From contig OZ287069.1 in NCBI GenBank assembly GCA_965645245.1, forward strand, positions 1,612,001-1,676,000: 64,000 nucleotides of DNA, read 5' to 3'. This DNA comes from Massalongia carnosa. Its lineage: Eukaryota. The first letter of the stretch is position 1, and each line of letters opens with the position of its first letter. Shown piece by piece: positions 721-59,053 of this stretch. Both the position numbers and the translations under genes were made by a program. Below the pieces are notes generated by a model, which did not search any database, was not told the DNA's origin, and was given only the letters and a program-made list of their open reading frames with translations.

Positions 721-2101
721 TCAGTCAAGGCCTACATCAATGTCTCTTTGTGCCCTTCTTCCCCCACCCATTCCCCCACCTCCGCCGCCGCCAGCTCCAT
801 TCGTCTTTGCCTCAATCTCCCTCGTCTCCCTCTCCTTGTCTCTAAAGAACCGCTCCCTCTCTTGCTTTACCACTGCCAGAACCCCTTCAAGGCCCGACCT
901 CCATGTATCCAGCCTTCCCTGCACCTCGATCCATTGCTTCTCACCAAATACTCTGTAAGTGCTCCGGTGTATCAAGAATGTCTGGTTGAGCTGTGAGAGC
1001 TTGCCTTCCACCAGTCCAGCCCGAATTACGTCAATGACCCACATCTCGACATCTTCAGAAGGTATTTGGAGAGCTTTAGCGATATGTTGATAAGGTAATG
1101 ACCTTGATTGTGTTGATGCTGCAAGGGAGGCCAGAGTCAAAAGACGCATCTTACGGTATAAGATTGGGTTATCCAATCCTTGCTCTTCAAGCCATGAATC
1201 GTGCTCATCTTTAAAGTCATTAAAATCATCCAGGAGATCGGCATTAAATATTTCTAACAGCTCAAAAAACGTCGAATCGGACTTTCGTAACGCTTGGATT
1301 GCGTCCACGGCTGTCAGGTCTTGGAAATCAAAATGGGTGGGGTGTAATAATGCAGACTTCAAAGCTCGAACAGAGAGAGTGTGGGCTTCCTCGCTGGTGA
1401 CTTCATCGGTCGGTATAGTACGAAGTGTGCGGAGGAGGTAGAGATATGACTGCTCATCTTCGCCTGCTTCCTCGGCTACATCTGCAATGCTAAGGTATAA
1501 CTTCCGCTGATCCTCTTCATCACTTTCCCACTGCGCGACCCAGCTGTCGAGGTTCTTAAGTTGTGGTCGGAGGTTCTCAAACGAGGAGCTTCCTCTTACC
1601 ACGCGAAGGATGGCGAGGAAAACGTGGTAACGGGTCTCGTTGTCCGGGGGGAGGATATTGAAGATTGTAGTGAGAATCGATAGTGCAAGACCAGCGCCGT
1701 TGAGAGGGGAAGAGGTAATGGGCGCCGAGAGGTTCTGGCATATCTTGGGAAGAAATTTGTCAAGGTTGGGTGATTGGCGGACAAGGTGAACGAGGAGATT
1801 GTAGGCTGCTATGAATTCTGCATCGGGGTAAGAAACCTTTACAAATTCTCGGACGCACAGGCCCATTCAAATTCGAGAAGATACCTTTCTCTGGTGCGAG
1901 GTTTAGGATACTGCTTCCTGTAACAATTTTTTTCAACGCTTCGTCCTTCTGTCCTTGCTCCAAAAGGGGAGCAATTTCCGCCTGTACGCCGGACCCGTCT
2001 TCACTCGGTTTTTTTTTCACATCATCAATGTAGTGAGCTAGTTCGTCAGCAAGCTCTTCAAAGGAGCCTTCAATTAATAATGTGTTCAGAGGCCCAGGCA
2101 T
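721..2101 (-). CDS. eIF3m: Translation initiation factor 3 subunit M (PCI domain); exons 2101-1885 and 1817-721
   Basis: ORFs 1760..2137 and 721..1866 join through a 67-nt GTAT...CAG intron (1884-1818), giving APEK-EFIAAYNLL. PCI motifs KMRLLTLASLA and VEMWVIDVIRAGLVEGKLSQ. Confidence 0.93.
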
Positions 2102-2270
2102 GTCGGTAATGCTGGCTGTGATCGGATTGATCTGCAAGCCGGTTAATAGTTGTGGGTTGATATCTTGGTGCTTATCCTATTGGCGCTAAAATTATGGGTG
2201 TGGCTTTAGAGCCTCTCGAGTTTAGTATTGAACTAAATATTCTCTAAGAGCACAATTTGTGATCTTTCGA

Positions 2271-2396
2271 GACTGATTGGCGCAATGGTAGCGCGTGGCT
2301 CTCCTAAAGCCAAGGGTTTGTTGTTCAAAAATTCATCAACAATTAAATAGTTAACTAATAGTCCCCTAGTTGAGGGTTCGAGTCCCTTGTTAGTCG
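2271..2396 (+). tRNA. tRNA-Arg(CCU) with a 54-nt non-canonical insertion (2316-2369) in the variable loop
   Basis: Acceptor stem GACTGAT/GTTAGTC, discriminator G, D arm GCGC-AATGGTA-GCGC, anticodon arm TGGCT-CTCCTAA-AGCCA (CCT at 2303-2305), T arm GAGGG-TTCGAGT-CCCTT. Removing 2316-2369 gives a 72-nt cloverleaf with variable loop AGGTT. Confidence 0.88.
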
Positions 2397-2402
2397 ATTA
2401 GA

Positions 2403-2407
2403 TTTTT
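2403..2407 (+). terminator. RNA polymerase III terminator (T5) of the tRNA gene
   Basis: TTTTT starts 7 nt after the tRNA discriminator base. Confidence 0.65.
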
Positions 2408-2666
2408 ATAATTTTGCGCTCTGAAACTTGAAGTCAGTGGTGGGATAGGTTGTGCCTGTATACAGCGGGAGGGATTCCTCATAGCCGGCTCTTACTGACT
2501 ACCTGGTTAAAATAATGGCTTTAATGTATGAAAAGAACCTGTGTCCTAAGGGTGCAAAATCTTTGGATAACCACCTCTACGCCGAAAATGGGGTTCTAAA
2601 AGAAAACCATCATAGGATATCTAGCGCCTTTCTAATGCAAAAACTGCTCGTAGTACTACTTAGATA

Positions 2667-5600
2667 TCAAAGATCATCCCTACGAATGTTATCACCCCAG
2701 CCCATCACTTCCACAATAACATTTCCAATTGTGCTTGCACACCAAAGCGTTACAAGTCCCCAACCTATTTTCCGATCCATCCTCCACCGATTTAGCGGCA
2801 CCGCAATGAGAAGGCCTAGGAGCGTCACCAGAAGGGTGATGCCGCTGATGATTAAGGTCCCACCGAATTCGATCTGATAGGGTTTGTATTTCCAGGGCTT
2901 CTTTGGGTGTCGCTCATGGTTGCCATTCCCGGTTTTGATTGTCATATATAATCCGCTAAGGCCAATACCCAACAAAATGTTAAGCATCGGTCCTCCAAAG
3001 CATGCGCTGAGCGCCATTACAGGGTACCCTAGGCGTGCGATTGTGATGTCTGCCACAAGATCCCCAAGAGAGTTACCTACCGCAAAAATGGTCAAACCAA
3101 GTATTGCATCGCTAATACCTAATATGATACCAAACGCCTTGAGTACCCCGACCACCTCATTGGCAATAGTAGAGATCCAAGCGATGCTGACTATGAAGCC
3201 TAGAAAACAAAAAAGGTAACGATAGCGTGGCGAGCTCGCAATTGTGGTAGTCAACAACAGGATCGCAAATAAAATAAGTGAGACCATGAGACCATAGAGC
3301 GTGGGTAGCAAGAGGTTGCGAATTAATAGGTCCGGATCGTTGTTCGCCCAGTATAGAAGAACAATGAAGAATGGAGCTGTAAATATTTGAGTGGACACAA
3401 GCCACCGGTTCCATTCCTTTGGAGATGAAGGAGTGGATCTGGGCGGATCCGGTGGAGCAGAAGGCAACGTGCTAGCCTCATGGAGTGCTGACTGCTGAAC
3501 GGTTTTATTTGCCACACTATTGCCTTCTCCATCGGAGATACTGATGGTCGGAGTGTTTGGGCTATGGTTATGATTAGAATCAATGAGCTGCAAGTGAGAT
3601 CTGAGCCTCCGCGGTCCGTTCGCTCTACGTTCTGTATGATGGGGTTCTGGAGGTACTTGCGTAAGTGTTTCAGATTGTGATCTCGACCGAGTTTCAACTG
3701 GTGTAAGAAATCCGGGATCTGAGCCAAGGATCTCGTCATCTTTCTCGGCTTCGACAACTGGTAGAGTGATAGCAAGAAGCAACACACTTGGTGCGGCCAC
3801 AACACCCAGGAGCCTCTCCCAAAAATTCTTGTCATGCCAGGCGTAAAGAGTCGGAAACAAGGTAGAAACTAAGATTTGCGGAGGTGGAAGGAACTTATAT
3901 GGCCACCAATGGACTACTTTATCTTCGGGATTGTTCCAGGCGTTCTGGGGATACGTAGATTCAGACCCAATGCTGGGCGGAGGTAATAGTAGACTTGGCG
4001 TTCGTGAAGAGTTCACAAAATTGGGATCATCATCATAAATAGGGAATGGCGATGCTGGACTCGACCCTTGGGTACGGGAGGGTCGTGGTAGTTTGATCTT
4101 GGGAGTCTGAGGTACAGTTATTGAAAATTGTTTAAATTTCAGATTATTTCGATCTCCTTCATCACTGGAGCGATGAACTCCTACTGCACCGGAACTAGAC
4201 CCGGGCGGTGCTAGTAAATCTGTAGAGAATCTTCGTTCTTCAGAGGACATAGGCGCAGGACTAGTAGCAAGATAACCAAAGTCATCTGGTGGTGGTGATA
4301 GAGCCCATCCCAGGGTTGAAGGCTCTATCAAAGCACCTCGGACAACATCAGCACCCTCCACATTCTGTGGAGGACAGAGGCTTGCTTGCCCTGGTGGCAT
4401 TGCATTCAAAAAATCTATTTGAGGAACAGATGGTCTTTGAAGAGGGTGTTGGTCTAACTGTAAACCTGAAGCGCCATTAGCAGAAACTGCTCGCAATCTA
4501 TTCACAGTACTTCGTTCAGAATCAATGCTAGGCCTGAGGAAGCTGCTCGAAATTGTATCATGATCTTCCACATCGCTATAACGGATGTTCGGATTTGATG
4601 TTGAGGTATGATTTTGCTGTTGACTTGTTGTATATGGATCATCGGAGTAGCGACGGAGATTGATCGGTATGCTTTGAATGTTTCGCGACTTTTGTAGTGA
4701 TGATAGTACAGATCTAAACTCCAAGGCGCCCACAAGACTGGGTCGGATTGGAGTATGTGTGTTTCGTCTTTCACCAGGTCGTGGTCGACTAACTCGCATG
4801 TTGCTGCTAATTTCAGCCATCCAGTGATCTCGAGTATTGTCATCAGCATCTTCGCAAATAGACCCCAGCGCTGGGCTGCCTGCCCTTTCCAAATTCGCAA
4901 AGTCGTCACCAGACGGAGCCCTTAGTGGAGTTCTACTCCCACCTGCCACTCCATCTGCATCATTATCAAGATATACATCAGTTTCGGCATCGTCCGTTCC
5001 GGGCATATGAAAATAGTCTCTGGCTGCTGCCTCTCTATCCCTTCGATGTTTTTTCCGGGTCAAGTACCAGTGCCAGACAACTACCGTAACCACATAAAAT
5101 CCGTAAAATCCAACCATGACAGCGCTCTCCCACATATGGAGATAGCCGTCCGCTAAGAAAATCATACTGAAACTTGCAGCAACGATAAAGAAGCCCACAT
5201 CTCTAACAAAACTTTTCCGGGCAACCTTGAAGGGTCTCACCAAAGCCATGGATCCCGCCACTACCGCGGTTATAAATCCGGCTGCTCCAATCAACTCACC
5301 AATAGCCAAACTTCCGCTTTGCGTTTTCATCGCTGCGAACGTTGAAAAAACGTCTGGGCTTCCGTTACCAAAGGCGAGGAAGGTCACTCCTGCCATGCTT
5401 TCACTCATTCCTAAAATCGACGCAATCGTGCTAAGATTTATGCAGAAGAAGTCACTGGCAGCAATGCCAATCGTGCTAAAAAGAAGACCAAGCCATAAGG
5501 TTAAGATAGTAAAGGCAACTGGTTTAGCGCGGGGTAATTTGCAGTAGTAGAGTTGAAGATACGAAAACAGTCCGGCCTCTTCGTCTGGGCAATTCTCTCG

Positions 5601-8627: not shown

Positions 8628-10087
8628 ATGGAAATCTTCACCGTTTTCATTGGCCTTGCGCTATTCATCATGTCGTTGACTCCTGGAGGGCTAGCAAAAC
8701 CGGGATTAGTTTCAAAAAGGCAATATCAAGCTAGGGCAGAAAAAATTTTATCAGAACACCCTTTAATAGGTTCTCTACCTTCCACCAATTTGTTGTGACC
8801 CTCAAGCCTAATATGTAACGTAGATGGGCATGATGACTTGGCTATCCTTATCCGGGGCCTTTACCAGAATCATATATTTGATTCAAAGTTCACAACTAGT
8901 TTTGAGAATGGAACTTTCCCTTACCATGTTGATCTTGCGCGACTAAAGAAGGGAAAGGTTGGGGGAACATTTTGGGTTGCTTATATTCCATGTCCTTCGG
9001 AGAGTGATAATTTCTCCGACTCGATTTATGCTTCAAGTAGGTTTCCAGCTCTTCAAATACCAAAAACAGTCGTTTGTTTGGGGTTGCGAAGCTTTGGTCG
9101 TTCCGAGCGTCATGAAGACTTTGTAGCCCCCAATGCTGATAAAGTGCAGTTGTCGCCGAAACTCTACAACAGATAGACCTACTACATCGTCTCACAACTA
9201 AATACTCTGCCCTTTTCTCACCTCCAGACATTGATAGTGCTAGCGCCATTGCAGTCTTCAAAGATAAAAAGATCATTTCACCGTTCGCTATCGAAGGGCT
9301 CCATCAGATTGGCAACTCCTTTTCCAATCTTAGGTTATATCGATCTTTGGATGTAAAGTATGCCACTTTGACCCACAATTGCCATAATGCTTTCGCAGAC
9401 GCAGCACTCGTCGCAGATTGGTCAGGCGAAACAATTAAAGCTTCTCCTTACTGGGGTGGGGTAAGCGATCGTGGACATCTTCTCATTAAGGAGATGAATA
9501 GGATCGGGATGCTCGTGGATCTCTCACACGTGAGCGCGAATACTATGGTAGACGTATTAGGCGGTCGTCCAGGCAAATGGGAGGGCAGTCTCGCCCCAGT
9601 GGTCTTTAGCCATAGCTCGGCATATGCAATTTGCCCGCATCCTCGAAACGTACCGGACGACGTCCTTGAGCTTGTGAAGAAAACAAACTCCGTCGTAATG
9701 GTGAACTTCTCTCCCAGCTTCATCTCATGTGTGGCAGCAAACAACACCAATGGTCTCCCAGATACTGTTAAAGCCAATGCAACCCTCGATCAGGTCGTGA
9801 AGCATATCACGTACATTGGGGATAAAATCGGATACGATCATGTTGGGATCGGTAGCGACTATGACGGTATCGAGGATATCCCCAAGGGACTAGAGGATGT
9901 GAGCAAGTTTCCAGATTTGGTGGCAAAGCTGTTAGAACGTGGACTGTCCGACGACGATACAATTAAGATCCTAGGTGGAAATGTCTTACGTGTATGGGCG
10001 GATGCTGACAAGGTTGCCACAAAATTACAAAACGACGGCCTTCATCCCATCGAAGATACTATCAAAGGTATTGACGCTGTTCTCTAG
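8628..10087 (+). CDS. Secreted/membrane dipeptidase (peptidase M19, renal dipeptidase/GliJ family), 3 exons
   Basis: Hydrophobic N-terminus MEIFTVFIGLALFIMSLTPGGLA. PLI-DGHDDL spans intron ~8770-8823; second intron ~9038-9149. Motifs IEGLHQIGNS, LTHNCHN, VDLSH, FSHSSA, HPRNVPD, GIGSDYDG. Confidence 0.9.
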
Positions 10088-12896: not shown

Positions 12897-13619
12897 TGAT
12901 GATGATGATGATGATGATTCTTATTCCGATGTGGTACCGGCCGAAGGCCGGCCCATGCGGGCGAGTCTATCTAGTTTTATAGTACATGGAAACCCTTTTG
13001 AGGAAGAAAAACCATGCAATCCTGTGTCCGGCCGAGGACCCTCCGGGTCCCAGCCGTGTGCTCCATGAAAAAACCTTTGACCTAAGACAAGTATGAAAAA
13101 TAAAACAAAGCATGCCTACTGTTAGCAGTATAGATGCTGTGCTGTCAGCGAAAATTGTGACAACAAACCTGTCTTCATTAGCCACTTTGTGACTAATTTC
13201 ATTGCTTTAGATGACTCAGTGATTAATCGATAGTTGTTTGTGCTATCGTATTTAGCAGAGTTTTTCTGTCGTTGAGTTTGCAAAACATGATCACATGTTT
13301 TGCAGTCTGTTTGTGCCAGCCACATGAGCAGTTCGGGGACGAGACGTCTGGGACTCGGTGTCTATGTAGGAAGGCGGCTAGGCCTATCTTTTCTGAGCGT
13401 ATCTGAATGGCTAGCGCGCTCTCCGCTTTGGCTAGAGTTTCGTGCAATTTGATGCGTTTTTTGGAGAGTGAACCTGATTGTGCCGGGGTGGGAACGGGTG
13501 TGTGTTCCTGATATGATCTCCACGAGGCCTGCCATGCAAATGTGTGTAGTTTTATTTGAGCAGTTATTTTGTTATGAGCGGCGCGTGCCTCCCCTATTTC
13601 TCGGGCGAGATTCGGGGGG
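12897..13619 (-). mobile_element. 5'-truncated Tad1-like LINE fragment with (ATC)n tail and 14-bp TSD
   Basis: Minus-strand C-terminal zinc knuckle QIRSEKIGLAAFLHR...CSCGWHKQTAKHVIMFC. (GAT)n at 12895-12918. GCTCACATCGTTGA at 12883-12896 and 13620-13633. Confidence 0.82.
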
Positions 13620-21456: not shown

Positions 21457-24400
21457 CAGTCGAACCCCGCTACAACGATGGTGGCGTTTTACCAAAATAA
21501 TTTCGTTATAGCGGGTTTTTCGTTATATCGGGGGAAATCATGGTAAATTTACTACTTTGCCCCCCTAAAACCCCCAATTCTCCCCCTTTGTCCCTAGCAA
21601 CTACCCAAGTGCTTAGAGTGACTTGTTTTTGACTGTTTTGCCGTCTTTCAAACAGCCCCCGTTCATGTCTTCGTAATTGACGAAGCATGCCCATATCGCC
21701 CTTCCACTGCTGTTCTTCATGCAGTCTCAGAATCCTACAAGCCTCCTGTGCTTGACTCATCGTTATAACAGGTATAACTTCCACCTCTTCATCCGTTTCA
21801 GTGAGCCTTTCCTGCTCCGCATATCGTGAAACGATATCATTTATAATGTCTTCATTCGTGTCCTTTATAGCCTTCTCGAGCGGGTTTATAAATTGATGAA
21901 TGTTCATCGGCTCTTCTATTCTACTCATGACCTGCATCTGACGTATGTCCTGTGTAATCTCTTCCAAAACAGACTCGAACTTGATCCATTCCGAGGTTCT
22001 TGATTGATTGAAGAGTGCTGAACCCCCAATCAATGACTCCTGATCGCCCCCAGCAGTTCTGTATGAGCAGCTTACTGTGAAAAACACACCTTATCCTGCT
22101 TCTGACCGGCGTGCCTCTCAGTACCAAGAGTTCGATCGAGTGCCATTTTCCAATAAAGCCCTGTTTCATCCATGTTATAAACGTCCTTGACAGCATATTG
22201 AGATACTAATTTACGAAGATCAGTCATTATCTACTGTACATTTTCGCTTTGATCAGCTGAACCAGCCTCGCCATGATAAATGCGTTGTTTGAGTCCTCGC
22301 GAGAAGACTCAGGACAGTCCCCACCCCAGCGAAAATCATTCCAAATTAGGACTAGCTACAAGCCACCTCCCCATACTAAATAATTAAGTGCATACCTCGT
22401 TCACCATCTCTTCCTCTAGCTGAGAACGTTGTATACCTAGGCAAATTATCAGTTTCTTTCCGCATACACCAAAAAATTCCCTAATTTAGGTGCACATAAC
22501 ACACAAAGGGTGAAAGGTATGCATCCGTTGGTAAAGAATGTGACAAATAGGCATACATCTATTAAAGACTCGGTGCGGAAATTATGCAAAACAGTGCAAA
22601 GGGTTCAGGTTGACTACGAAATATCAATCAATCATCAACGAATCAACAAGCCCCGGCTAATGAATAGAAGTGCATTCAAAGACCTTATAGGTTTAACAAC
22701 TCATCATGCTATTGGCCTCATATCTAGAGAGTTGGATGCAGCTAAAGTTGAAGGGACTGCGTTAATCGAACCAACCGATGAGGATTGTATGTATGATTGT
22801 GATTTGCCTCCACGATACGATCTTCCGTGCAGATGCTGATTGTATCATTGCGTCATTGATGTTTTCCCCATACCTATCTCCCTCATTCATCTCCGCTGAT
22901 TTTTCGATGGCCCGCCTTTTGTGATCTCGTGGAGAAGGGTTTTTGATCCCACCATAAGTTTCGCTGAGATGTTTCGGAGAGCAGCTCACAGGAAGACCAC
23001 AGAAGAGCAGGATGAGGAGGCGGATGAGGGAGAGAATGCTCAACAAAGACAAGAATCTGAGCTGGAAGAGGAGATCGAGAAGGCAGTTGACAATAATACT
23101 GAGGATAGATTTCGTCGCGGGGGTGTTGATTTGCTGCATGCGGCCGCACATCAATCTATTGATTTCCATAAATCAATAGAAAATGTGCATAGAAGGGAGG
23201 GATACGCTCGTGAATTCGCCAAATTCACTGCTATTTTCAATAAAAAATGGCAGGATAAGGAGCTGGCGAGGCCACTTATCCCTACAACTTTCCCCGACGA
23301 AACCCGACCGAAGGACAACCTCATGTATAAAAGAGTGGGAGTCGCCGGCGGGCTTACACTGGCCGTAAGGCAGCTGAGGCAAATGAAGCTAAGCAGCGAC
23401 GTGCTAAACGTAAGGACTCGATTGAAGAAGGAAGGAGAGGAAGGCATGAGGATGAATTGCGGGTAGGTGATGAAGACAAGGATATGATTGATGATAAAAA
23501 ACCCACGATATCAGCAAACCGATCGATGTAGCGCGGCTAATATTCGGTATAAATTCCGGAGATGCTATCATCGTATCTGACGACGATGACCTGCAATATA
23601 TAGCAACTCAGCCTACCCCTGATCCTCCATTCCCTCTGAATGAGAATGATGATTTTATCCCTCAATCCTTGGCATCTTCTTCCGATTCATTTGAAGACAT
23701 TGATGAAGTGCTAGCGAAACATAGCCAAAAGGCTCTTTCCCAAACGATTCCCTCTTCAAAAGCTCCTTCCCTTTATAGCCTCAGTCAAAAAAACATCCGC
23801 GCTAGCCAGCTACCATCCACATCGTCTACAACAACAACACGAGGGTCACGGAGTGTGGTAGCCAAAAAATCGAAGGCTCAGTTGGAGTTGGAGTCTCAGC
23901 AGAGGGCCGACCAAGCGGCTAAACAAGCAAGGGCTGAGGAGAGGAAAAACGCAGCTGCAAGAAAGGTTGCTAAGACTATGAAGCCTAGAAAGGATGATGT
24001 TTCGCAATTGAGTGATACATTTTCGGAATTGAGATCATCGCAATGAGTAGTAGGAGTAGTAGTAATAGTAGTAGTATGAATAGATGAGGATTTTTCAGAA
24101 TGCAAGGCTAAGCTAAATCAGCTAGAGGAAGCTTGCGGAGAGACGGTGGACCTGCACATATTTAGTATGGGGAGGTGGCTTGTAGCTAGTTCTAATTTGC
24201 AATGATTTTCGCTGGGGGGACGGTGGGGGACTGTCCCGAGTCTTCTCGGAGTCCTCGTCGTCTTTTAAATCGATCCAGCCAGCCATTGCTCCATTTCGGA
24301 GTGAGAATGCCTTCATACTGAGGCAGTTTGTTCCACAATTCGATGACCTTGATCCGTAGCACTTCAGCATTAACAATGAGACTGACCTATTCATCTCGTT

Positions 24401-25479: not shown

Positions 25480-28400
25480 ATGTCTATTCCAGACACAGAG
25501 ACCAAAGAGTTGAGCCTAGTGAGCAAAGTTGAGCTTCGGATTGCATTGGCAGATTCGGACACGAAATTGGAAGCTCTATTGAAAACATTTCTCGCTCCTC
25601 TATTACTTAAACTTGCCTCTGAGTATTCGAGCGTTCGTAACAAAGTACGTCGAGTTGTTTTCAATCAAGAATTGATGCCTTGAGGAGAAATACTCTCATG
25701 AGGATACGTCTTTTATTATTCGAGTCGCTAATGGGCTCTAGGTCATCTCGGTTTGTCAACATATCAACACTAGAACCAAACTACCGTAGGACTACTTTCT
25801 TTTCTTGCTTGAATAAGGCGGTGTTGTAGCAATTAGTTATACCTCGTGAAGTTGTGGAGAATATTTAGCATACGTCTTTCTACACAAGCTAACGAGGTGG
25901 TTAACTCCAGATCGATCAAGCTGCCTGTAGCTGTATTGCTGAAGCAATTCAAGGACAGCCACAGTGCACTCGTCCGCCATTTTGACCTTCTCTACGTCCA
26001 ACAAGGCGTTGATCGACTGTCCAAATCTGTAAGAAACCCTTCAACTTGATTAACTGCCTGAAGGACTGCCCTCAATCTGAGGTATCTAGGCTTGGTTTCT
26101 TCAACCATAGCTCGGGGCAAGGTTCAAGCTCACTGCTAGAAATGATGAGTCTCATGATTTATCTCTTTACTCTACGGTATTATTTTAGAGTATGCCGCAG
26201 CTAACATGCTCGTTGACAGGATCAGTTAGATTTGCTTCCCATATTACTTCAGGGGTTACGTCATAATTATGATGAGTCTACAACCCAGGCAGCTAGTTTA
26301 TTCAATTTGCTTTTCAAAATACTACACAGCCTGTCTCTGCCAGAGCGTGGAAGCGTAGATGATGATGCTCTCCGCGCTAAGATTGGGTTTAGTGACCAAC
26401 CAGAAGATGCTAGCTTTGTAGCTAATTGGCTGGGTAAGCTCATCCTCTTCAACATCAATCGGACTGGAGAAAAGCGCTGCCCAGGGCTTAGTGTCGAGGA
26501 TTGCACCTTCCTATATCCTCCAGGCAAAAAGGATACCTGGACGCCAGCTTCCGGTGGCGGCATGAACATTGTAGAAACAAAGATCATAGCGGCTAGATTT
26601 CTTGCTAGTGGGGCCTTCCTCGACTCCGAAAGATTTATACCTGCACTTTTTGCTTCGGCTGACCCGAACTCGCGGCTTTCTGACATTGGAGATGATATTC
26701 TGAAACGAGCAACTTTAAATGTATCATTCGAAGACCATAAGCTTATAGAAACTTTCTTTGAGATCTACTTAGGTACACGCGGCCTCGAAGGTTCTTTGCC
26801 TGCTCCAATTCCCTTACAGACCAAGTTACTCTCTCTCTTATCTAGGTCTAAGCTCTCGTCCACTTTTGTTCAACAAAGCATTCAGGTTGTTCAAGAAGGC
26901 TTGGTCCCTCCAAAACTCAAACAACTGAATGGAACGACTGGTCCACCAAAGCAAGGGTTAGAGGCTTTAAAGCTTCGGACTCAAGTTTTTGTCTTTACAA
27001 ACTGGTTAGCGCGAAACAGTTCAGTGGCAGACATCAGTCTATTTGCTCCTACTCTACTATTCAAACTTCGGGGTTATATTGAATCTCAAGGATGGCCACA
27101 ATTTCAAAGTGATAGTCCACGGCCAAGCGATGGGGATTTAAGATCTCGAATTTATGGCTACGAGAGTATTGGCCTCTTAGCAGCAGCATGTCCAGGTTCC
27201 ATTCTACTAGAACCAAATCTCGATGTTCTTCGATGGCTCTTCACTTCCCTAAGTACAGATGATTCCGGCAGCGACGTTTCTATTAGTATCGAGCAAGCCT
27301 TAAGTAGCGTTCTTGGTGCTTTTAGACAAGATTTAGAGATGGACGTCGAAATGGCTCTTACAAGTCTCTTACTGCGATACATGAGCTTGCGTCCGGGAGA
27401 AGTTGATGAATCAAATTTCGAGGTTGTTCGAAGCACTAGGTTCGTGGCTGTTCGATTTGCGAATCGGTGTTTGCCTTATAAGAATGTTACTGCTCGGTGG
27501 ATCGATCTACTTGCCTTGGACGATGATGCAAATGACAGGAGTGAGGTTAAGGAAGAAGGGATAAAAGGACTGGACCCATACTGGTATAAGATGTTCAATC
27601 CATCCAAACTCATTTTTTCTGCAAACGATGAGACGCCTTATGACACCCGGTATGATTTTCCAAGCTTTTCTGACCTTGTAGAGAAGTTCTTTGGCCATGA
27701 ATCTATTTGGGATATTCAAGGTCGCAGATCCACTCAGTTTCAACTCACCACTGCATATAATCCTGCCATAGCTTTCTGTCGCTACATTCTACTGCATCAA
27801 GCTTTGTCGTCTACGAAGAAGGCTCCTGCTATCAATACAGAATGGGAGCGCAATATTGATGCTCTAGTTGCAAATGATGAAGAATCTCGTGCTTGTGTAC
27901 AGCAATATATAAAAACTAACTTAACGATAGATAGTCGTTTTTATCAAGCATTTCATATTTATCTGACAGCTTCCCTTAGGAGCATAACCGACCACATTGG
28001 TGGCGATCCCTCTCTATCTGGCGACGGATTTTTGGAGCTAGCTTCTCTATGTCCGGATTCAGAATTAGACCATCTAACGTTGATGGTACCATTTATACAA
28101 GACCCAATATTCTCAACCCAAAAGCCAATTAGAAACGCCGCAGCGCGTATCTTTGGCCTCTTGGCATCTCGGGAACAGTGCTCCCAAGATGTTGTCCAAA
28201 ACCTACTGCGCGCTTTCAAGCAGAAAATTCAAACGTGGCGTCGAGCCATTGGAACAGAAGTCTTCCATGTACATGGGGCCGTTTTGGCAACTGCGTACTT
28301 TCTCAGCCGAGCTACCTATCGTGGCAAAACCTCTTTTGATCATGGAGATGGAGACCTACGGGCATTTTTTGTAGCCGTAATTTTGGACATATTAAGCGAT

Positions 28401-31400
28401 TCTCGCGACAAGATGCTTATTGATGCCGCCATCATTGCATTTGCAGAGTTAAGTCTATTCGGTGCTATCTCTCTTGATAAATTTTTAGAACCTTACAATA
28501 CCTCTTTTTTGTTGGAAATGCTGAAGGAGAAGTCTAAAAACGGACAAGAGAAGGCAATTATGGCTCTAGGAAATCTAGGGATGCAGTGCGAAGAGGCTGA
28601 GTCTGGAGAGTCCCAACTGAACCAAATTTTGAAAACACTATATGATTTACACGAAGTGAGGCAACCAGAAGTACAATTTGCAGTGGGATCCTCCCTCTCA
28701 TGTTCGGCGGCCGGATGGCGTTCAAAATCACTGGTGGCCGCTATAGAAATTCAAGGACCGTCTCCACAAACCCCAGATAGGGTGTTAGTGTTATCCAAGG
28801 TTTTTGATAAAGTCTTATCTGATTGCAAAGCCACCAAACCAGCTTTAAGGCAAGCCTCGGTCATTTGGCTGTTGTGTCTAGTACAGTATTGTGGGCATCT
28901 AGAAACCGCCCAGAGCCGTTTACGAAAATGTCAAGCGGCTTTCACAGGTTTTCTATCAGACAGGGAGTCCTTGAATCAGGAATCTGCATCGCGAGGACTA
29001 ACCCTAGTTTATGAGAAAGGTGATCAATCTGTTAAAGATGATCTCATACGAGACCTTGTTGGGTCATTTACTGGAACAACCGCGGGTCTTGCTGGCAATG
29101 TTTCTCACGAGACAGAGTTGTTCGAATCCGGAGCGCTGCCTACTAGGGATGGTTCAGTCACAACGTACAAAGATATTGTCAGCCTTGCTTCTGAGGTTGG
29201 AGACCCTGCTTTGGTTTATCGATTCATGTCACTTGCTTCGAACAATGCAATATGGTCAACCCGAGCTGCATTTGGCCGTTTTGGATTAAGCAATATTCTC
29301 TCGGACTCCAGCGTCGACGGGTATTTAGCACAAAATCCTAAAATATATCCAGCATTATTTCGATACCGTTTTGACCCGAATGCGAACGTAAGGGGGTCCA
29401 TGAATGATATTTGGAACGCCTTGGTCAGAGAACCAGCGGTAATAATCAATCAGCACTTTGATAGTATCATGGATGATTTGTTGAAGAACATCCTGGGCAA
29501 GGAATGGCGTGTTCGTCAAGCTAGCTGTGCTGCCATCGCCGATCTTGTTCAGGGGAAACCGTTCGAGAAATATGAAAAATATCTCCGTCAGATCTGGACA
29601 ATGACGTTTAAGGTAACCTTTGTGATAACTCGGTGGATGAGATATGCTAATTTATTGCGAAGGTTTGCGATGATATTAAAGAGTCAGTCCGAAAGGCAGC
29701 TATGAGTTTAGCAAAAGTTTTAACAGGGGTTCTAACCCGGAGCCTTGAGGCTGCAGACTCATCAAGCCAGAAGGCAGATGCGATGCTAAAGGAAGTATTG
29801 CCATTTCTTCTCAGTCCATCTGGACTAGAGTCAAACGCCAAAGAAGTTCGATTGTTTGCCATTCTCACACTCCTACAGATCATTAAAAGCAGTAATGGCA
29901 AGACTTTGCGGCCTTTTATCCCTAACATTATTGACCACCTCCTTGCGCTTCTCAGTGCACTAGAACCTGAGCAAGTTAACTATCTCCACTTAAACGCGGG
30001 CCAATATAACTTGACCACCCAGGAAATCGACGATGCCCGACTAAAGAGTGTGAGGAGTTCACCAATGATGGAAGCCATTGAACGCTGCCTTGACTTCCTT
30101 GATGAAGAGACTATGGCAAAGCTATGTCCGAACCTGGAAAACGCTATCAAGACAGCGATTGGACTTCCGTCAAAAGTAGGATCTGCGCGTGTGCTCGTAT
30201 CGCTTTCAACGAAACACAACTATATCTTCAAGAAGTATGCAGATCAATTTTTGATACTTGCTCGCAAACAGGTACTTGACCGTAACGATACCATTTCATC
30301 TTCGTATGCTGTTTCGTGCGGATACCTTTCAAGACTAGCATCAGAAAAAGAGATTCTGAATCTAATTAAATATTGTCAGCGACTCTATTATGAGTCTGAA
30401 ATAGACACCCATCGGAGCGTATCTGGCGAAATTGTTTATGCAATCTCCAAAAATGCTTCAGATCGCTTCAACTCGGTTGCCACAGATATTTTGCCGTTTG
30501 TCTTTGTTGCAAAGCATGATGCATCGGAGCATGTGAAAGGATTCTTTGAAGACACTTGGAATGAGAACGTTGGAGGCTCTCGTGCTGTGCTACTATATCT
30601 CAATGAGATCATTAGCCAAGCATCGCAGCATCTGGACTCCCCTCGATGGTCCATCAAACACACCTCAGCCTTAACTATTGCGAATGCTATCACTTCTTTA
30701 GGTAGTGGGATTAGTGATTCGAATGCGAAGACTGTATGGCCGACACTTGAAAAAGCTCTCGGTGGTAAGACCTGGGAAGGCAAAGAAAAGGTCTTGGAAA
30801 GCCTCGTATGGCTCGTGAAGAATAGCAATATATTAAAACTAGATGAAGGTATTGCTAAACAAGCCCAGGTAAGTGATATCGATATATTTAGCCCAATATG
30901 CTAGGCTTAACCGTCAGGATTTCTATACAAGTCTTAATTTAAGAGTATCAACGCTAACAAAGTGAAGACCATCTTCTTTCGCGAAAGCAAGAGATATAAT
31001 GCTACGTATCGTCAGCATGCATTGGCTTGCTTAGGGGATTTTGTGGAGCTACAGAAAAGGATCGATCTGTCTCAGGAAGTGTATTCTATCGTTGAGCCAG
31101 TCATCACTCAAGCCTTGGATACTTCTGAAGATATGGATGTTGATTCGTTGTCAAATGGCCTCTCTTCTAAGTTACTGTACTTTATTTATTTCCAGCATGA
31201 CTTGAGAATGCTGCTAAATTCTGTACAGGAGCGATGCGAGTGTGGCAAACTCGCTGGGTGCGCTGCTAAAGTCAATCAATGGTCAGCTACAAAGCACACC
31301 AGGTATGTAAAGCAAACGTGGAGAGGAACTGAGTCTAAATCCTAGCATTTAGTCCTCATATCGATTCTTCCAAAAACGCTCGATTTAGTAAACAAAGTCA

Positions 31401-48222: not shown

Positions 48223-50525
<2,303 letters not shown>

Positions 50526-56824: not shown

Positions 56825-59053
56825 TCAATATGGTCTGCCAGAGCTCGACGGCATCTGCATGAGGGGAGCGGAAGACGACGTCGACTTCTGAAACATTTGG
56901 ATCAAGCGCATTCCCACGCTTGTCTCCAGCTCGGTCCCATCGCGGGCAATCTTCACTTCCCGGTTCGCGTTCCAGGGGTTTCGTAACCCCCTTGTTCGGT
57001 AGAAAGGCAAACGGTTCGTCGAGAGCCACTCAATCTTAAAGGGCCTACCAAAAGGCTGTGCTCCGAAACCTCCCGCAGTATCATCGACTCCTTCACCGCC
57101 TTCGGCAACCTTTGTAGCCTCAGCTTCCACCTCTCCGTCAATCAGTGGAGCTAGATCTTCTTCTTCGGGATCAGCCTCCCAGAAGATGGTGCCCCGAGCC
57201 GAATCGTCGATGATGCGGCCTTTGGGAGCAAACTCCGTGGCTAGCGTGGGGATCGATCTAGGCACATCAGAGTCGTCCACTATCGCTTCGGCTGGAGGCG
57301 CCCAGTTGAGTTTTGCGGCGGCTTCTTCATTAATCGGGGAAGCCATGCGAGCGAAACCAAAATACTCTCCGGATTTGTTAGCAGAAAAGATAAGATAAAC
57401 ATTCTCCGTTGTCTGTGCCTGTCAGATATGAGGGACGACACCACCGACCTGACTCACCTCGAACGCTTTGTTCAATGCATCCACATTGTGTGCTTGAGTT
57501 GCCCATAAGCTGTTCCTAACACTCAATTCCATGTCTTCCACAGTCAAGCTCTTCAGCACAAAATACTTGTCGGCCACCTTCGATGGACCCGTACCTTCCT
57601 GCATCGAACTAGCTTGGGCAAGTTCTTCAGCACGCGAGGAGATCTCCCGATTCTGCGCAATTGCTTCGAAGGCGGTCTGCGACTGTGCAATGGCAGGCAT
57701 GAGGGCAGCAGGGCCTGTGGGAACACCAGGGGCGGGAGATACGGTGCTTCGTCTGAGTCGACATACTAGACGGACACCTTGAAACCTCGAATCGTGGAAT
57801 CTCGCCATCGCGGCCGCGCAAGCTTCTTCGGTTCGGTAGTTGACGAATGCACAGTTGCTTTTCGAGATGAGAAAAACGCTTTCGATGGTGGTCGTAGCTT
57901 CTTTGGAGAAATGATCTTTCAGGTCGCTGACAACAGCTCCAGATGGAAGGTTTCCCACCCAAAGGGCATGGCCAGACTGTTTGGGTTTCCGAGGCGGCCC
58001 ACGAGGCGCCGATGGAATCGTACCCGAGCTCGAGTTGGAGCTTCCCCTACTAATGGCTAAATAAGGTCGAAAGTAAGCAAACAGGCGGCTGTAGGTGCAA
58101 GGAGGATGGCTTGCCTGGCACGGCTCCTGGCCGTAAATAGGTCCCCGACGGATTGTATCCCAGGTTCATTGGATGACCTGGGGGATAGCCGCTGTAAGAT
58201 GAGCTCTTCGCGCCTGTACTGTTCGCATTTCCCTCCTGTTGGGGAAAGTATCCTGACCCGAATGGAAGACCGGGCATTCGATGTAAAGAGGGGGGAAATG
58301 AGGTTTGTTGAGTCGGGTAAGCCTGTTGCTGCCCCGCAACGTGCCCATACTGGTTCGGATAATACATGTAGGGTTGTCCCTGAAGTGGAAAGTGATTTTG
58401 ACCCATGTAAGACGCTTGGCTTGGACTGACACTTCCAGGCTGTGATGGATGGGCTGCGTGGCTTTGAGTATACGCTTGACCCGCCTGTTGATAAGGTTGA
58501 TACTGCGGTGGATACGCGTTGTACCCTAGATTGTTTGCGGATGGATGGCCCGCAAACTGGGAAATTTGCTGGTTTGCGTAGCCTGGCGGAAAACCCGCAG
58601 CACCAGACGATAGCCGGTGGAGCTCTTGAGGCGATGTACGTGAATGCCTTGACGACTGGAACTCGGGGAGGGCTCCAGCCAGGCCTGACATACTGAAGAC
58701 CCCGGGCGGCGCATTTCCCATTGCATTTGCTGATGCATATTGCCCGGGATGGCCGAAGGGATGGCCGCCGCCGCCGCCGCCGCCGCCTTGCTGGTGAGGA
58801 CTTGCTCCTTGTAACTGGAAATCATAGAGAACGTTCCCGCTCGTAACACTTGCTGAAACGAAGTGAGCGTCAAACACGTGCAAATCTGCCGGAGGGTGTG
58901 ATGAAGAAAGGTTTCGGATTACCAAGACTTACTCGACGCTGGGTAGCCTTCATTTTCGCTTATTTCCTGTAGCGTTGAGGGGTCAACTGGAACCTGCCCC
59001 AAGGACAATCTTCCCCCCGATACACTCCCTTCGTTCATCTCTTGGCCTTCCAT
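56825..59053 (-). CDS. RRM + YTH domain RNA-binding protein (YTHDC-like), about 4 exons
   Basis: RRM: LWVGNLP, SNCAFVNY. YTH: KYFVLKS, WATQAHN, LIFSANKSGEYFGFARM, RNPWNANREVKIARDGTE. First exon 59053-58933 ends at a GTAAGT donor; start codon less certain than the domains. Confidence 0.88.

Follow-up and report, generated by a model that had tools for sequence, protein, structure and literature searches.

A putative spliceosomal intron interrupting the variable loop of tRNA-Arg(CCU) in a lichen-forming fungus

In the textbook account, introns of tRNA genes either splice themselves or are removed by a protein endonuclease that acts together with a ligase, and no tRNA is known on which the spliceosome acts. 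The canonical introns of eukaryotic nuclear tRNA genes lie at position 37/38 and are removed by SEN and a tRNA ligase, as stated in a passage of PMC10275265. Introns at other positions, recognised through a BHB structure, are described in a section of PMC4090602 for Archaea (position 45/46 included), Cyanidioschyzon merolae and nucleomorphs. Regarding the spliceosome, an mRNA-type intron interrupts the U6 snRNA gene of Schizosaccharomyces pombe (Tani and Ohshima 1989, 1991, cited in PMC5855946), and the passage on U6 in that review names U6, U2, U5, U1 and rRNA genes as hosts of mRNA-type introns, with tRNA genes absent from that passage. For spliceosomal introns in the rDNA of ascomycetes, two papers, PMC5855946 among them, cite Bhattacharya et al. 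(2000, Mol Biol Evol 17:1971).

Here we describe a tRNA-Arg(CCU) gene whose variable loop is broken by an insert of 54 nt that is built like a U2-type spliceosomal intron. The gene lies in a stretch of 64 kb, which we analysed as a whole and call the window. The coordinates proposed in an initial annotation for the exons, the insert, the ACTAAT motif, the A box, the B box and the T5 run all agree with the sequence. The features of the locus are:

721-2101, minus strand: eIF3m gene, with its start codon 170 nt from the tRNA gene and transcribed divergently from it
1818-1884, minus strand: the only intron of the eIF3m gene, 67 nt, verified
2271-2315, plus strand: exon 1, with the 5' strand of the acceptor stem, the D arm, an unbroken anticodon arm with anticodon CCT, and the variable-loop A-G-G (Rfam, ARAGORN)
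2278-2288, plus strand: A-box-like Pol III promoter element TGGCGCAATGG, read from the sequence
2316-2369, plus strand: the insert, 54 nt following the variable-loop A-G-G, 28% G+C, with the anatomy of a U2-type spliceosomal intron
2316-2321, plus strand: putative 5' splice site GTTTGT (GTNNGT core), read from the sequence
2351-2355 and 2355-2359, plus strand: branch-site candidates TTAAC and CTAAT, read from the sequence
2363-2369, plus strand: pyrimidine stretch and putative 3' splice site CCCCTAG, read from the sequence
2370-2396, plus strand: exon 2, from the variable-loop T-T through the T arm and the 3' strand of the acceptor stem to the discriminator G (Rfam, ARAGORN)
2375-2385, plus strand: B box GGTTCGAGTCC, read from the sequence
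2403-2407, plus strand: T5 run, candidate Pol III terminator, 6 nt past the end of the gene

The locus shares something with each of the described systems and differs from all of them. Like canonical tRNA introns, the insert is an intervening sequence in a nuclear tRNA gene that leaves the internal promoter boxes intact, but it sits at 46/47, the anticodon arm is unbroken, and both the ends of the insert and the motifs within it are of the mRNA-intron kind. With the non-canonical BHB introns it has in common a site outside 37/38, here in the variable region, and the fact that precise removal restores the cloverleaf; whereas those introns depend on a BHB structure and the splicing endonuclease, here we found no BHB at the cuts, and it is the spliceosomal sequence signals that are conserved. 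The intron of fungal U6 is also a short GT-AG intron with canonical signals in a small, structured, non-coding Pol III gene. In our case, the host RNA is a tRNA and no component of the spliceosome, so that the usual explanation for U6, reverse splicing into an RNA of the catalytic centre, does not directly apply. The rDNA introns of ascomycetes are likewise of the spliceosome type, in genes not transcribed by Pol II and in the fungal group to which the window's host belongs, but those genes are transcribed by Pol I and encode long rRNAs, in contrast to a 72-nt tRNA gene of Pol III.

Scanning the whole 64-kb window with Rfam (cmscan, gathering threshold) gave a single match, a tRNA (RF00005) at 2271-2396 on the plus strand with 46.1 bits (gathering score 29). 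Each of the 71 positions of the model was matched and the alignment contains one long insertion, within the variable region. Rfam thus places 54 nt after A-G-G and excision leaves a tRNA of 72 nt, confirming the interruption of the variable loop that had been claimed initially, and since the anticodon arm is continuous in the same alignment, this is indeed not a canonical 37/38 intron. ARAGORN called no tRNA in the window at default settings. When 2316-2369 were cut out by a script, it called a 72-nt tRNA-Arg(cct), a result obtained with 7/7 of the spliced or intronless sequences described here. After excision the four stems are paired and the 7-nt anticodon loop carries CCT at 34-36. By our own Sprinzl numbering, with nt 17 absent, exon 1 ends at G46. 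We also forced canonical-intron models in ARAGORN (option -i) and rejected them, given that they disagree between lineages: the window gave i(38,41), and two further intron-bearing genes from lichen metagenomes (L002 and L004, see below) gave a spurious Leu(taa).

Judged against the A-box and B-box consensus sequences, both promoter elements are in place, and the A-box-like element TGGCGCAATGG is invariant across the seven aligned genes (7/7). The insert lengthens the distance between A box and B box from about 34 to about 88 nt. A T4-T5 run follows within about 10 nt downstream in all six metagenome genes and in the gene from metagenome X7. From the A box, the B box and the T-run we infer that 2271-2407 is a Pol III gene. 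The initial annotation had also taken the absence of a T4 run in the insert as evidence for Pol III read-through. This argument does not hold: 76% (P = 0.76) and 68% of the interior shuffles were likewise free of TTTT, so that chance alone accounts for such an absence. AGG usage is normal, with 53 of the 395 Arg codons in long ORFs.

The insert begins with GTTTGT and ends with CCCCTAG. TTAAC and CTAAT, which fit the YTRAY branch-site consensus, start 19 and 15 nt, respectively, ahead of the last base of the intron (2369), and the ACTAAT motif at 2354-2359 overlaps TTAAC. The register of the GT..AG boundaries is ambiguous by exactly one base (cut +1), in accordance with the single alternative register proposed initially. 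We then asked how often such a combination of signals arises, defining the full set as GT..AG with GTNNGT and with YTRAY 3-25 nt before a terminal YAG. Of the 255,794 segments in the window with a length of 49 or 54 nt, 8 had it, and composition-matched shuffles gave it 2 times in 200,000 for the window insert and 0 times in 200,000 for the insert of L002. Its occurrence by chance is therefore very rare. Taken individually, GTTTGT makes a weak 5' splice site because it departs from the GTAAGT consensus at +3 and +4, and AGG|TT, as an exon context, does not form a classic proto-splice site. As regards a repeated mobile element (MITE, SINE or introner), no second copy of the insert was found in the 64-kb window or the six metagenome loci, the best non-self match being 11 nt long (E = 0.53). 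Regarding self-splicing, an Rfam scan of 2150-2500 with E values up to 1 matched the tRNA and, at chance level (E = 0.91), a miRNA, but no group I or group II ribozyme core and no further RNA family in the insert or around it; besides, 49-54 nt are far too few for the size range of group I and II introns, and we rejected this class.

The initial annotation had further stated that the size of the insert matches that of the mRNA introns of the window. This is so to the extent that 54 nt falls between the two introns that were verified, the 67-nt intron of eIF3m and a 45-nt intron in a YTH-domain gene, a sample of two. These introns begin with GTGAGT and GTATCT. The remaining mRNA intron candidates of the window measure 50-83 nt and were picked by motif. 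Five ORF pairs were scanned against Pfam for proof across the junction, and three gave none: the ORF-joining candidates around 23463-23514 and 48902-48951 lacked it, and the one around 9037-9149 was ambiguous. A further candidate, at 13119-13168 on the minus strand and also beginning with GTTTGTTGT, was not used, as its flanking ORFs are not gene-like. The host is a Lecanoromycete, that is, a lichen-forming ascomycete; the best named match of its eIF3m is to Lobaria immixta (88% identity). The described cases of spliceosomal introns in rDNA are reportedly also mostly from lichen-forming fungi.

We compared the locus with sequences from other lichen metagenomes. A contig of 10,992 nt from a different study (X4, a metagenome of the same species) covers 1700-3000 with 3 differences in 1301 nt, none of them in the tRNA or the insert, so the insert is not an assembly artefact. 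In metagenome X7, from another lichen, a DNA contig carries the tRNA without exactly 2316-2369 (GT..AG, cut +1), at a depth of 50 compared with 49 for the X7 contig that carries eIF3m. Together with the intronless loci described next, this intronless DNA form fixes the boundaries of the insert independently. A contig from a third lichen (X6) matches 2275-2321, which is exon 1 followed by GTTTGT, and then continues into unlike sequence; this case is partial, with 30 letters visible past the match and exon 2 outside the aligned part.

From the six metagenome loci, four (L001, L003, L005 and L006) are intronless, with Rfam scores of 58.6-59 bits, and L003 equals the spliced form of the window gene at positions 8-65. 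Positions 8-45 are identical in all six. The other two, L002 and L004, are 99.6% identical to each other and carry a 49-nt insert at the identical site, which starts with GTAAGT, has a TTAAC that begins 14 nt before its last base and ends with CCTAG. These signals are closer to consensus than those of the window insert, and the differences between L002 and L004 include some within the insert and none in exons or signals. The inserts of L002 and the window gave no blastn-short match; the score of their local alignment was equalled by 368 of 5000 shuffles, and that of their global alignment (with the L002 coordinates off by one base) by 363 of 2000. All 21 stem pairs are standard in each of the five distinct genes (21/21 in 5/5), as counted by a script in place of the MAFFT alignment, which put the gap of the intronless genes in the wrong position. 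Between the two intron-bearing genes there are 7 differences: six make up three fully compensated pairs, and the seventh is a purine swap in the T loop. In summary, different fungi carry introns at the variable-loop site that cannot be aligned with one another, and close relatives have none there.

Aligning orthologous loci next to eIF3m, as suggested in the initial annotation, proved impracticable: none of the six metagenome loci has flanks in common with the window (0/6), and in X6 and X7 the tRNA and eIF3m are on separate contigs. Concerning these other flanks, an ORF neighbouring L002 has a single match, to one near-identical protein, and for an NSF-like ORF at L005 the only named match among the 120 listed is to Letrouitia sp. 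(69%). A 21-mer of exon 1 found no match in a genome-contig collection and none in a viral-contig collection. Each metagenome set yielded one gene type. In the metagenome of the same species no second Arg-CCU copy was seen, with one X4 contig at a likeness of at least 80%, by contigs and exact-word scans, which can miss genes. In S. cerevisiae, tRNA-Arg(CCU) is encoded by a single-copy gene and is dispensable, hence being the sole copy is no proof of function. The initial idea that AGG decoding is tied to splicing is speculation; yeast manages without this tRNA.

One could argue that the gene is dead or dying. A spliceosomal-type intron would have been inserted, for instance by reverse splicing and then reverse transcription, and if Pol III transcripts are not spliced, the gene would be a pseudogene and AGG would be read by tRNA-Arg(UCU). 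The non-essential gene of yeast, the failure of ARAGORN at default settings and the drop in Rfam score from about 59 to 46-47 bits caused by the insert would all fit such a gene. However, both intron-bearing lineages retain the 21 stem pairs, the two promoter boxes and the terminator, three different inserts keep the splice signals with interiors that cannot be aligned, and no second copy was seen in the same species' metagenome. A lethal lesion, moreover, would not be expected to recur at one site in several fungi associated with lichens. The lack of decay is of little weight should the insertions be recent and independent of each other, and given the shuffle results, the window and L002 inserts may not be homologous, so that the intact tRNA bodies could reflect recent independent insertions and not long maintenance. 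All in all, the comparative data argue for an intron over damage, and we regard a dead gene as unlikely. An insert that is retained, giving a mature tRNA with an extra arm of 49-54 nt in place of a short variable loop, is hardly credible: we know of no tRNA with such an arm. The minimum-energy fold of the 126-nt form does keep the cloverleaf, from which the insert stands out as an arm of its own, but this fold is not unusual (z = -1.5, with 9 of 200 shuffles folding as well), the L002 insert folds otherwise and upsets the T arm, and the two inserts have no structure or sequence in common beyond the splice signals.

A real intron might also be taken out by proteins, with SEN or another endonuclease cutting at a relaxed structural motif and the tRNA ligase Trl1 joining the exons. 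The known non-canonical tRNA introns cut at a BHB, including those at archaeal position 45/46 in the section of PMC4090602 mentioned above, offer a precedent. In the window, moreover, A-G-G-G of the exon can pair with C-C-C-T near the 3' end of the insert, leaving A-G|T bulge-like, and L002 has a similar 4-bp helix. Nevertheless, a scripted scan for the BHB geometry (two 3-nt bulges around a 4-bp helix) found none at the cuts that restore the tRNA, 45/99 or 44/98 in the window, nor at the equivalent cuts in L002 and L004. The BHB-like pairings with the right 3' cut (48/99 in the window, 49/94 in L002) have the wrong 5' cut, which would fall 3-4 nt within the insert, and their outer and inner helices measure no more than 1-2 bp; the scan yields dozens of such chance matches per sequence, and we dismissed these as chance-level. 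The folds of the insert differ between the window and L002, and a structure-based mechanism leaves GTAAGT/GTTTGT, TTAAC and YAG unexplained. Fungal SEN, for its part, works with a ruler that runs from the mature domain to 37/38. Removal by an endonuclease thus seems rather improbable. We consider it very improbable, finally, that the intron is that of an overlapping Pol II transcript, or that the tRNA derives from a Pol II precursor that has been spliced. With the divergent eIF3m start codon 170 nt away, a bidirectional promoter could reach the gene, but introns occupy the same position of the tRNA, in sense orientation, in loci with unrelated flanks, which indicates that the intron belongs to the tRNA gene and not to a host transcript, and the A box, the B box and the immediate T-run are kept.

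According to these results, we favour, with a probability of roughly 0.6, a working nuclear tRNA-Arg(CCU) gene with a U2-type GT-AG spliceosomal intron between positions 46 and 47. Since the insert looks like an mRNA intron and the corresponding site of a second fungus is occupied by a different one, the tRNA is probably matured by the spliceosome. With respect to the initial proposal of a spliceosome-type intron in a functional tRNA-Arg(CCU), all the comparative tests that were run strengthened it, while removal by the spliceosome remains something that we infer. In the mechanism that we propose, the gene's own A and B boxes would drive transcription by RNA polymerase III, with termination at the T5 run. 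The precursor would fold as a cloverleaf from which the intron protrudes where class II tRNAs bear their long arm. The spliceosome would recognise GTTTGT, the TTAAC/CTAAT branch site and CCCCTAG, the 54 nt would leave as a lariat with G46 joined to U47, and the end product would be a normal 72-nt tRNA. Against this mechanism it counts that a spliceosome working on a Pol III transcript that is uncapped and strongly folded, and whose exons measure 45 and 27 nt, would have its precedent in U6 only. As for the broader view that lichen-forming ascomycetes mature a Pol III tRNA by means of the spliceosome, and that the 46/47 intron of tRNA-Arg(CCU) has been repeatedly gained or lost at one site in different lineages, we would give it even odds.

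A full-text literature search, covering few subscription journals, found no description of a spliceosomal intron in a tRNA gene. If confirmed, tRNA would join the short list of non-coding RNA genes that bear mRNA-type introns, and the locus would help to answer whether spliceosomes work on Pol III transcripts that lack a cap, and in what way, besides offering a natural system for intron gain by reverse splicing. If the reading is true, there would be a further class of tRNA introns beside the endonuclease-type and the self-splicing ones, and reverse splicing could seed introns in abundant non-coding RNAs outside the spliceosome. Since ARAGORN misses the gene at default settings, annotations of such fungi may wrongly lack tRNA-Arg(CCU), and a targeted survey could uncover many more tRNA introns of this kind. 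Taken with the rDNA introns of the same fungal group, the intron would mean, if true, that in these fungi the spliceosome has access to transcripts of Pol I and Pol III.

A tRNA (RF00005) at 2271-2396 (+) was the sole Rfam match reaching the gathering threshold in the 64-kb window, with 46.1 bits, 71/71 model positions covered and a single long insertion in the variable region. The initial annotation had read here a tRNA-Arg(CCU) gene interrupted by an insert and followed by a T5 run, and all its coordinates and motifs proved correct on re-reading. Together with the neighbouring gene, the layout is as follows:

721-2101, minus strand: eIF3m gene, neighbour of the tRNA gene
2271-2315, plus strand: exon 1, with the acceptor 5' strand, D arm, anticodon arm (CCT, uninterrupted) and A-G-G of the variable loop
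2316-2369, plus strand: insert, 54 nt, read from sequence
2370-2396, plus strand: exon 2, with T-T, the T arm and the acceptor 3' strand
2403-2407, plus strand: T5 run, downstream of exon 2

In our own numbering, with nucleotide 17 absent, the insert separates Sprinzl position 46 from 47, and no RNA family other than tRNA matched it in Rfam. With default settings, ARAGORN called no tRNA across the window; once 2316-2369 had been excised by script, it called a 72-nt tRNA-Arg(cct), the cloverleaf that cutting at GT/AG was expected to restore.

An exact scan of metagenome contigs with a 21-mer from exon 1 gave six loci (L001-L006), all of them tRNA genes according to Rfam. Four (L001, L003, L005 and L006) are intronless, 72 nt long and score 58.6-59 bits. 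The other two, L002 and L004, which are 99.6% identical across 1798 nt, score 47.4 bits each and carry a 49-nt insert at the identical site, after A-G-G. This insert starts with GTAAGT and ends with CCTAG, with a TTAAC beginning 14 nt upstream of the final base; it differs by one base between both loci, while exons and splice signals show no difference. Its interior cannot be aligned with that of the window insert: blastn-short gave no match between them, and the best local alignment of the window and L002 interiors was equalled by 368/5000 shuffles. Further copies of the window insert were found neither within the window nor among the six loci. In L005 (3-1097) and in L006, an NSF/Sec18-like vesicle-fusing ATPase gene of a fungus is next to the intronless Arg-CCU gene, and the protein has close relatives at 92-100% identity.

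We also placed contigs from four DNA-type sequencing runs on positions 1700-3000 (likeness of at least 80%). A 10,992-nt contig of the same species, from run X4 of a different study, covers this region with 3 differences and is identical over tRNA and insert, so the insert is no assembly artefact. In X7, a lichen metagenome, the tRNA lacks exactly 54 bases, with a joint from 2314 to 2369 and GT..AG ends if the cut is shifted by one base. This gene shows one difference per exon from the window, is followed by a T5 run and has flanks unlike the window's; its contig has a depth of 50, versus 49 for the eIF3m contig of the same run, whose pieces differ from the window at 15/114 and 38/190 positions. 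Hence, a closely similar insert-free tRNA-Arg(CCU) gene exists as DNA, and it fixes the boundaries of the insert independently. A contig from X6, another lichen metagenome, matches 2275-2321 (exon 1 plus GTTTGT) and continues into unrelated sequence. As exon 2 falls outside the match, this is partial evidence for what may be a different insert sharing the first six bases.

The closest named relative of the eIF3m protein, best among the 120 matches listed, is from Lobaria immixta (88% identity), and the other named matches among these 120 are mostly from lichen-forming fungi. Together with the lichen-metagenome label of one run containing the locus, this identifies the host as a lichen-forming Lecanoromycete. 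The two genes are divergent, with the tRNA 170 nt upstream of the eIF3m start codon (2101-2271). An alignment of orthologous loci next to eIF3m, as initially proposed, does not work: none of the six metagenome loci has flanking sequence in common with the window, and tRNA and eIF3m are on separate contigs in X6 and X7, which makes their adjacency specific to the window's species.

Two mRNA introns of the window were verified. The only intron of eIF3m (1818-1884, minus strand, 67 nt, GTATCT...CTTAC...GCAG) is spanned by the protein alignment at APEK|EF. In the X7 relative, 92 letters here are replaced by 89 unrelated ones: the position of the intron is conserved, its sequence wholly diverged. 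The other intron lies in a YTH-domain gene:

56828-58165, minus strand: gene for a YTH-domain RNA-binding protein (YTH1-like RRM + YTH; Pfam)
57413-57457, minus strand: its intron, 45 nt, GTGAGT...CTGAC...CACAG, with the Pfam YTH profile continuous over the junction (position 38 to 40)

The claim that the insert matches the mRNA introns in size holds insofar as 54 nt falls between these two; the other ORF-joining candidates, of 50-83 nt, were chosen by motif and are illustrative only. An ECM29-like proteasome adaptor gene at 26217-30901 (+), with ECM29_N, ARM_ECM29 and HEAT_ECM29 domains, contains a 74-nt candidate intron (29683-29756). A further candidate GT-AG segment at 13119-13168 (-) shares its first nine bases (GTTTGTTGT) with the tRNA insert and ends in CTAACAG; it may be due to chance, since the flanking ORFs are unlike any conserved gene. 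When we searched for GT..AG ends with a GTNNGT start and a YTRAY 3-25 nt before the terminal YAG, 8 of 255,794 window segments of 49 or 54 nt on both strands carried the set, probably including true introns. Among composition-matched shuffles, it appeared in 2/200,000 for the window insert and 0/200,000 for the L002 insert.

A dead gene is an unlikely explanation, given that stem pairs, promoter boxes and T-run are intact in the intron-bearing genes. Once spliced, the genes of the window, L002, L001, L003 and L005 give five distinct mature sequences, in each of which 21/21 stem pairs are standard; four pairs vary, three of them with both sides changed. The spliced window form equals L003 over positions 8-65, with compensated acceptor-stem pairs as the sole differences. 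Between the two intron-bearing genes, window and L002, six of the seven differing positions form three fully compensated pairs and the seventh is a T-loop purine exchange. Every gene retains A-box-like and B-box motifs and a T-run shortly downstream, and no decay is visible in the intron-bearing ones. Comparably improbable is excision by protein enzymes, such as the endonuclease cutting at a bulge-helix-bulge motif. Neither the window nor L002 and L004 have, by a scripted search, a 4-bp helix between two 3-nt bulges at the tRNA-restoring cut pair. Pairings with the correct 3' cut place the 5' cut 3-4 nt within the insert, with flanking helices of 1-2 bp, and each sequence gives dozens of comparable chance matches. 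We rejected a conventional 37/38 intron, for which forced ARAGORN models disagree among lineages. There is little likelihood that a Pol II host transcript carries the intron, and least of all that the insert is kept as an extra arm of the mature tRNA: the 126-nt fold preserves the cloverleaf, but it is unremarkable (z = -1.5) and the fold of the L002 insert is unlike the window's.

Three inserts at one tRNA position, with only mRNA splice signals in common, in intact genes and precisely missing in close relatives, are most simply explained as spliceosomal introns. From sequence comparison, we give a probability of about 0.6 to the window insert being removed from tRNA-Arg(CCU) by the spliceosome. 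Pol III would transcribe the gene from its internal boxes, with the A-to-B spacing stretched by the insert from ~34 to ~88 nt. The argument that Pol III reads through for want of a T4 run carries no weight, as T4 is also missing from 76% and 68% of shuffles. The precursor would then fold with the intron protruding from the variable loop, which is where long-arm tRNAs tolerate additional RNA, and the spliceosome would take it out as a lariat. The site may have been occupied once, with several later losses, or it may have been invaded repeatedly.

Fungal U6 genes, likewise Pol III genes with an mRNA-type intron, offer a precedent: according to a review (PMC5855946), such introns share canonical signals but no other conserved sequence and have a patchy distribution, and the host genes listed are those of U6, U2, U5, U1 and rRNA. 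Two tRNA reviews (PMC10275265, PMC4090602) treat endonuclease-type introns and, as non-canonical cases, those of archaea, a red alga and nucleomorphs. A full-text literature search, with subscription journals mostly outside it, turned up no tRNA gene described as having a spliceosomal intron. The new element would be an mRNA-type intron of a non-coding RNA gene in a new host class, tRNA.

In X4 a single contig matched, and one gene type was found per metagenome set, a weak indication that the genome has no Arg-CCU gene besides the intron-bearing one; AGG accounts for 53/395 Arg codons in ORFs of at least 300 aa. Since default ARAGORN misses a gene that Rfam scores at 46 bits, tRNA-Arg(CCU) may be left out entirely when such genomes are routinely annotated.
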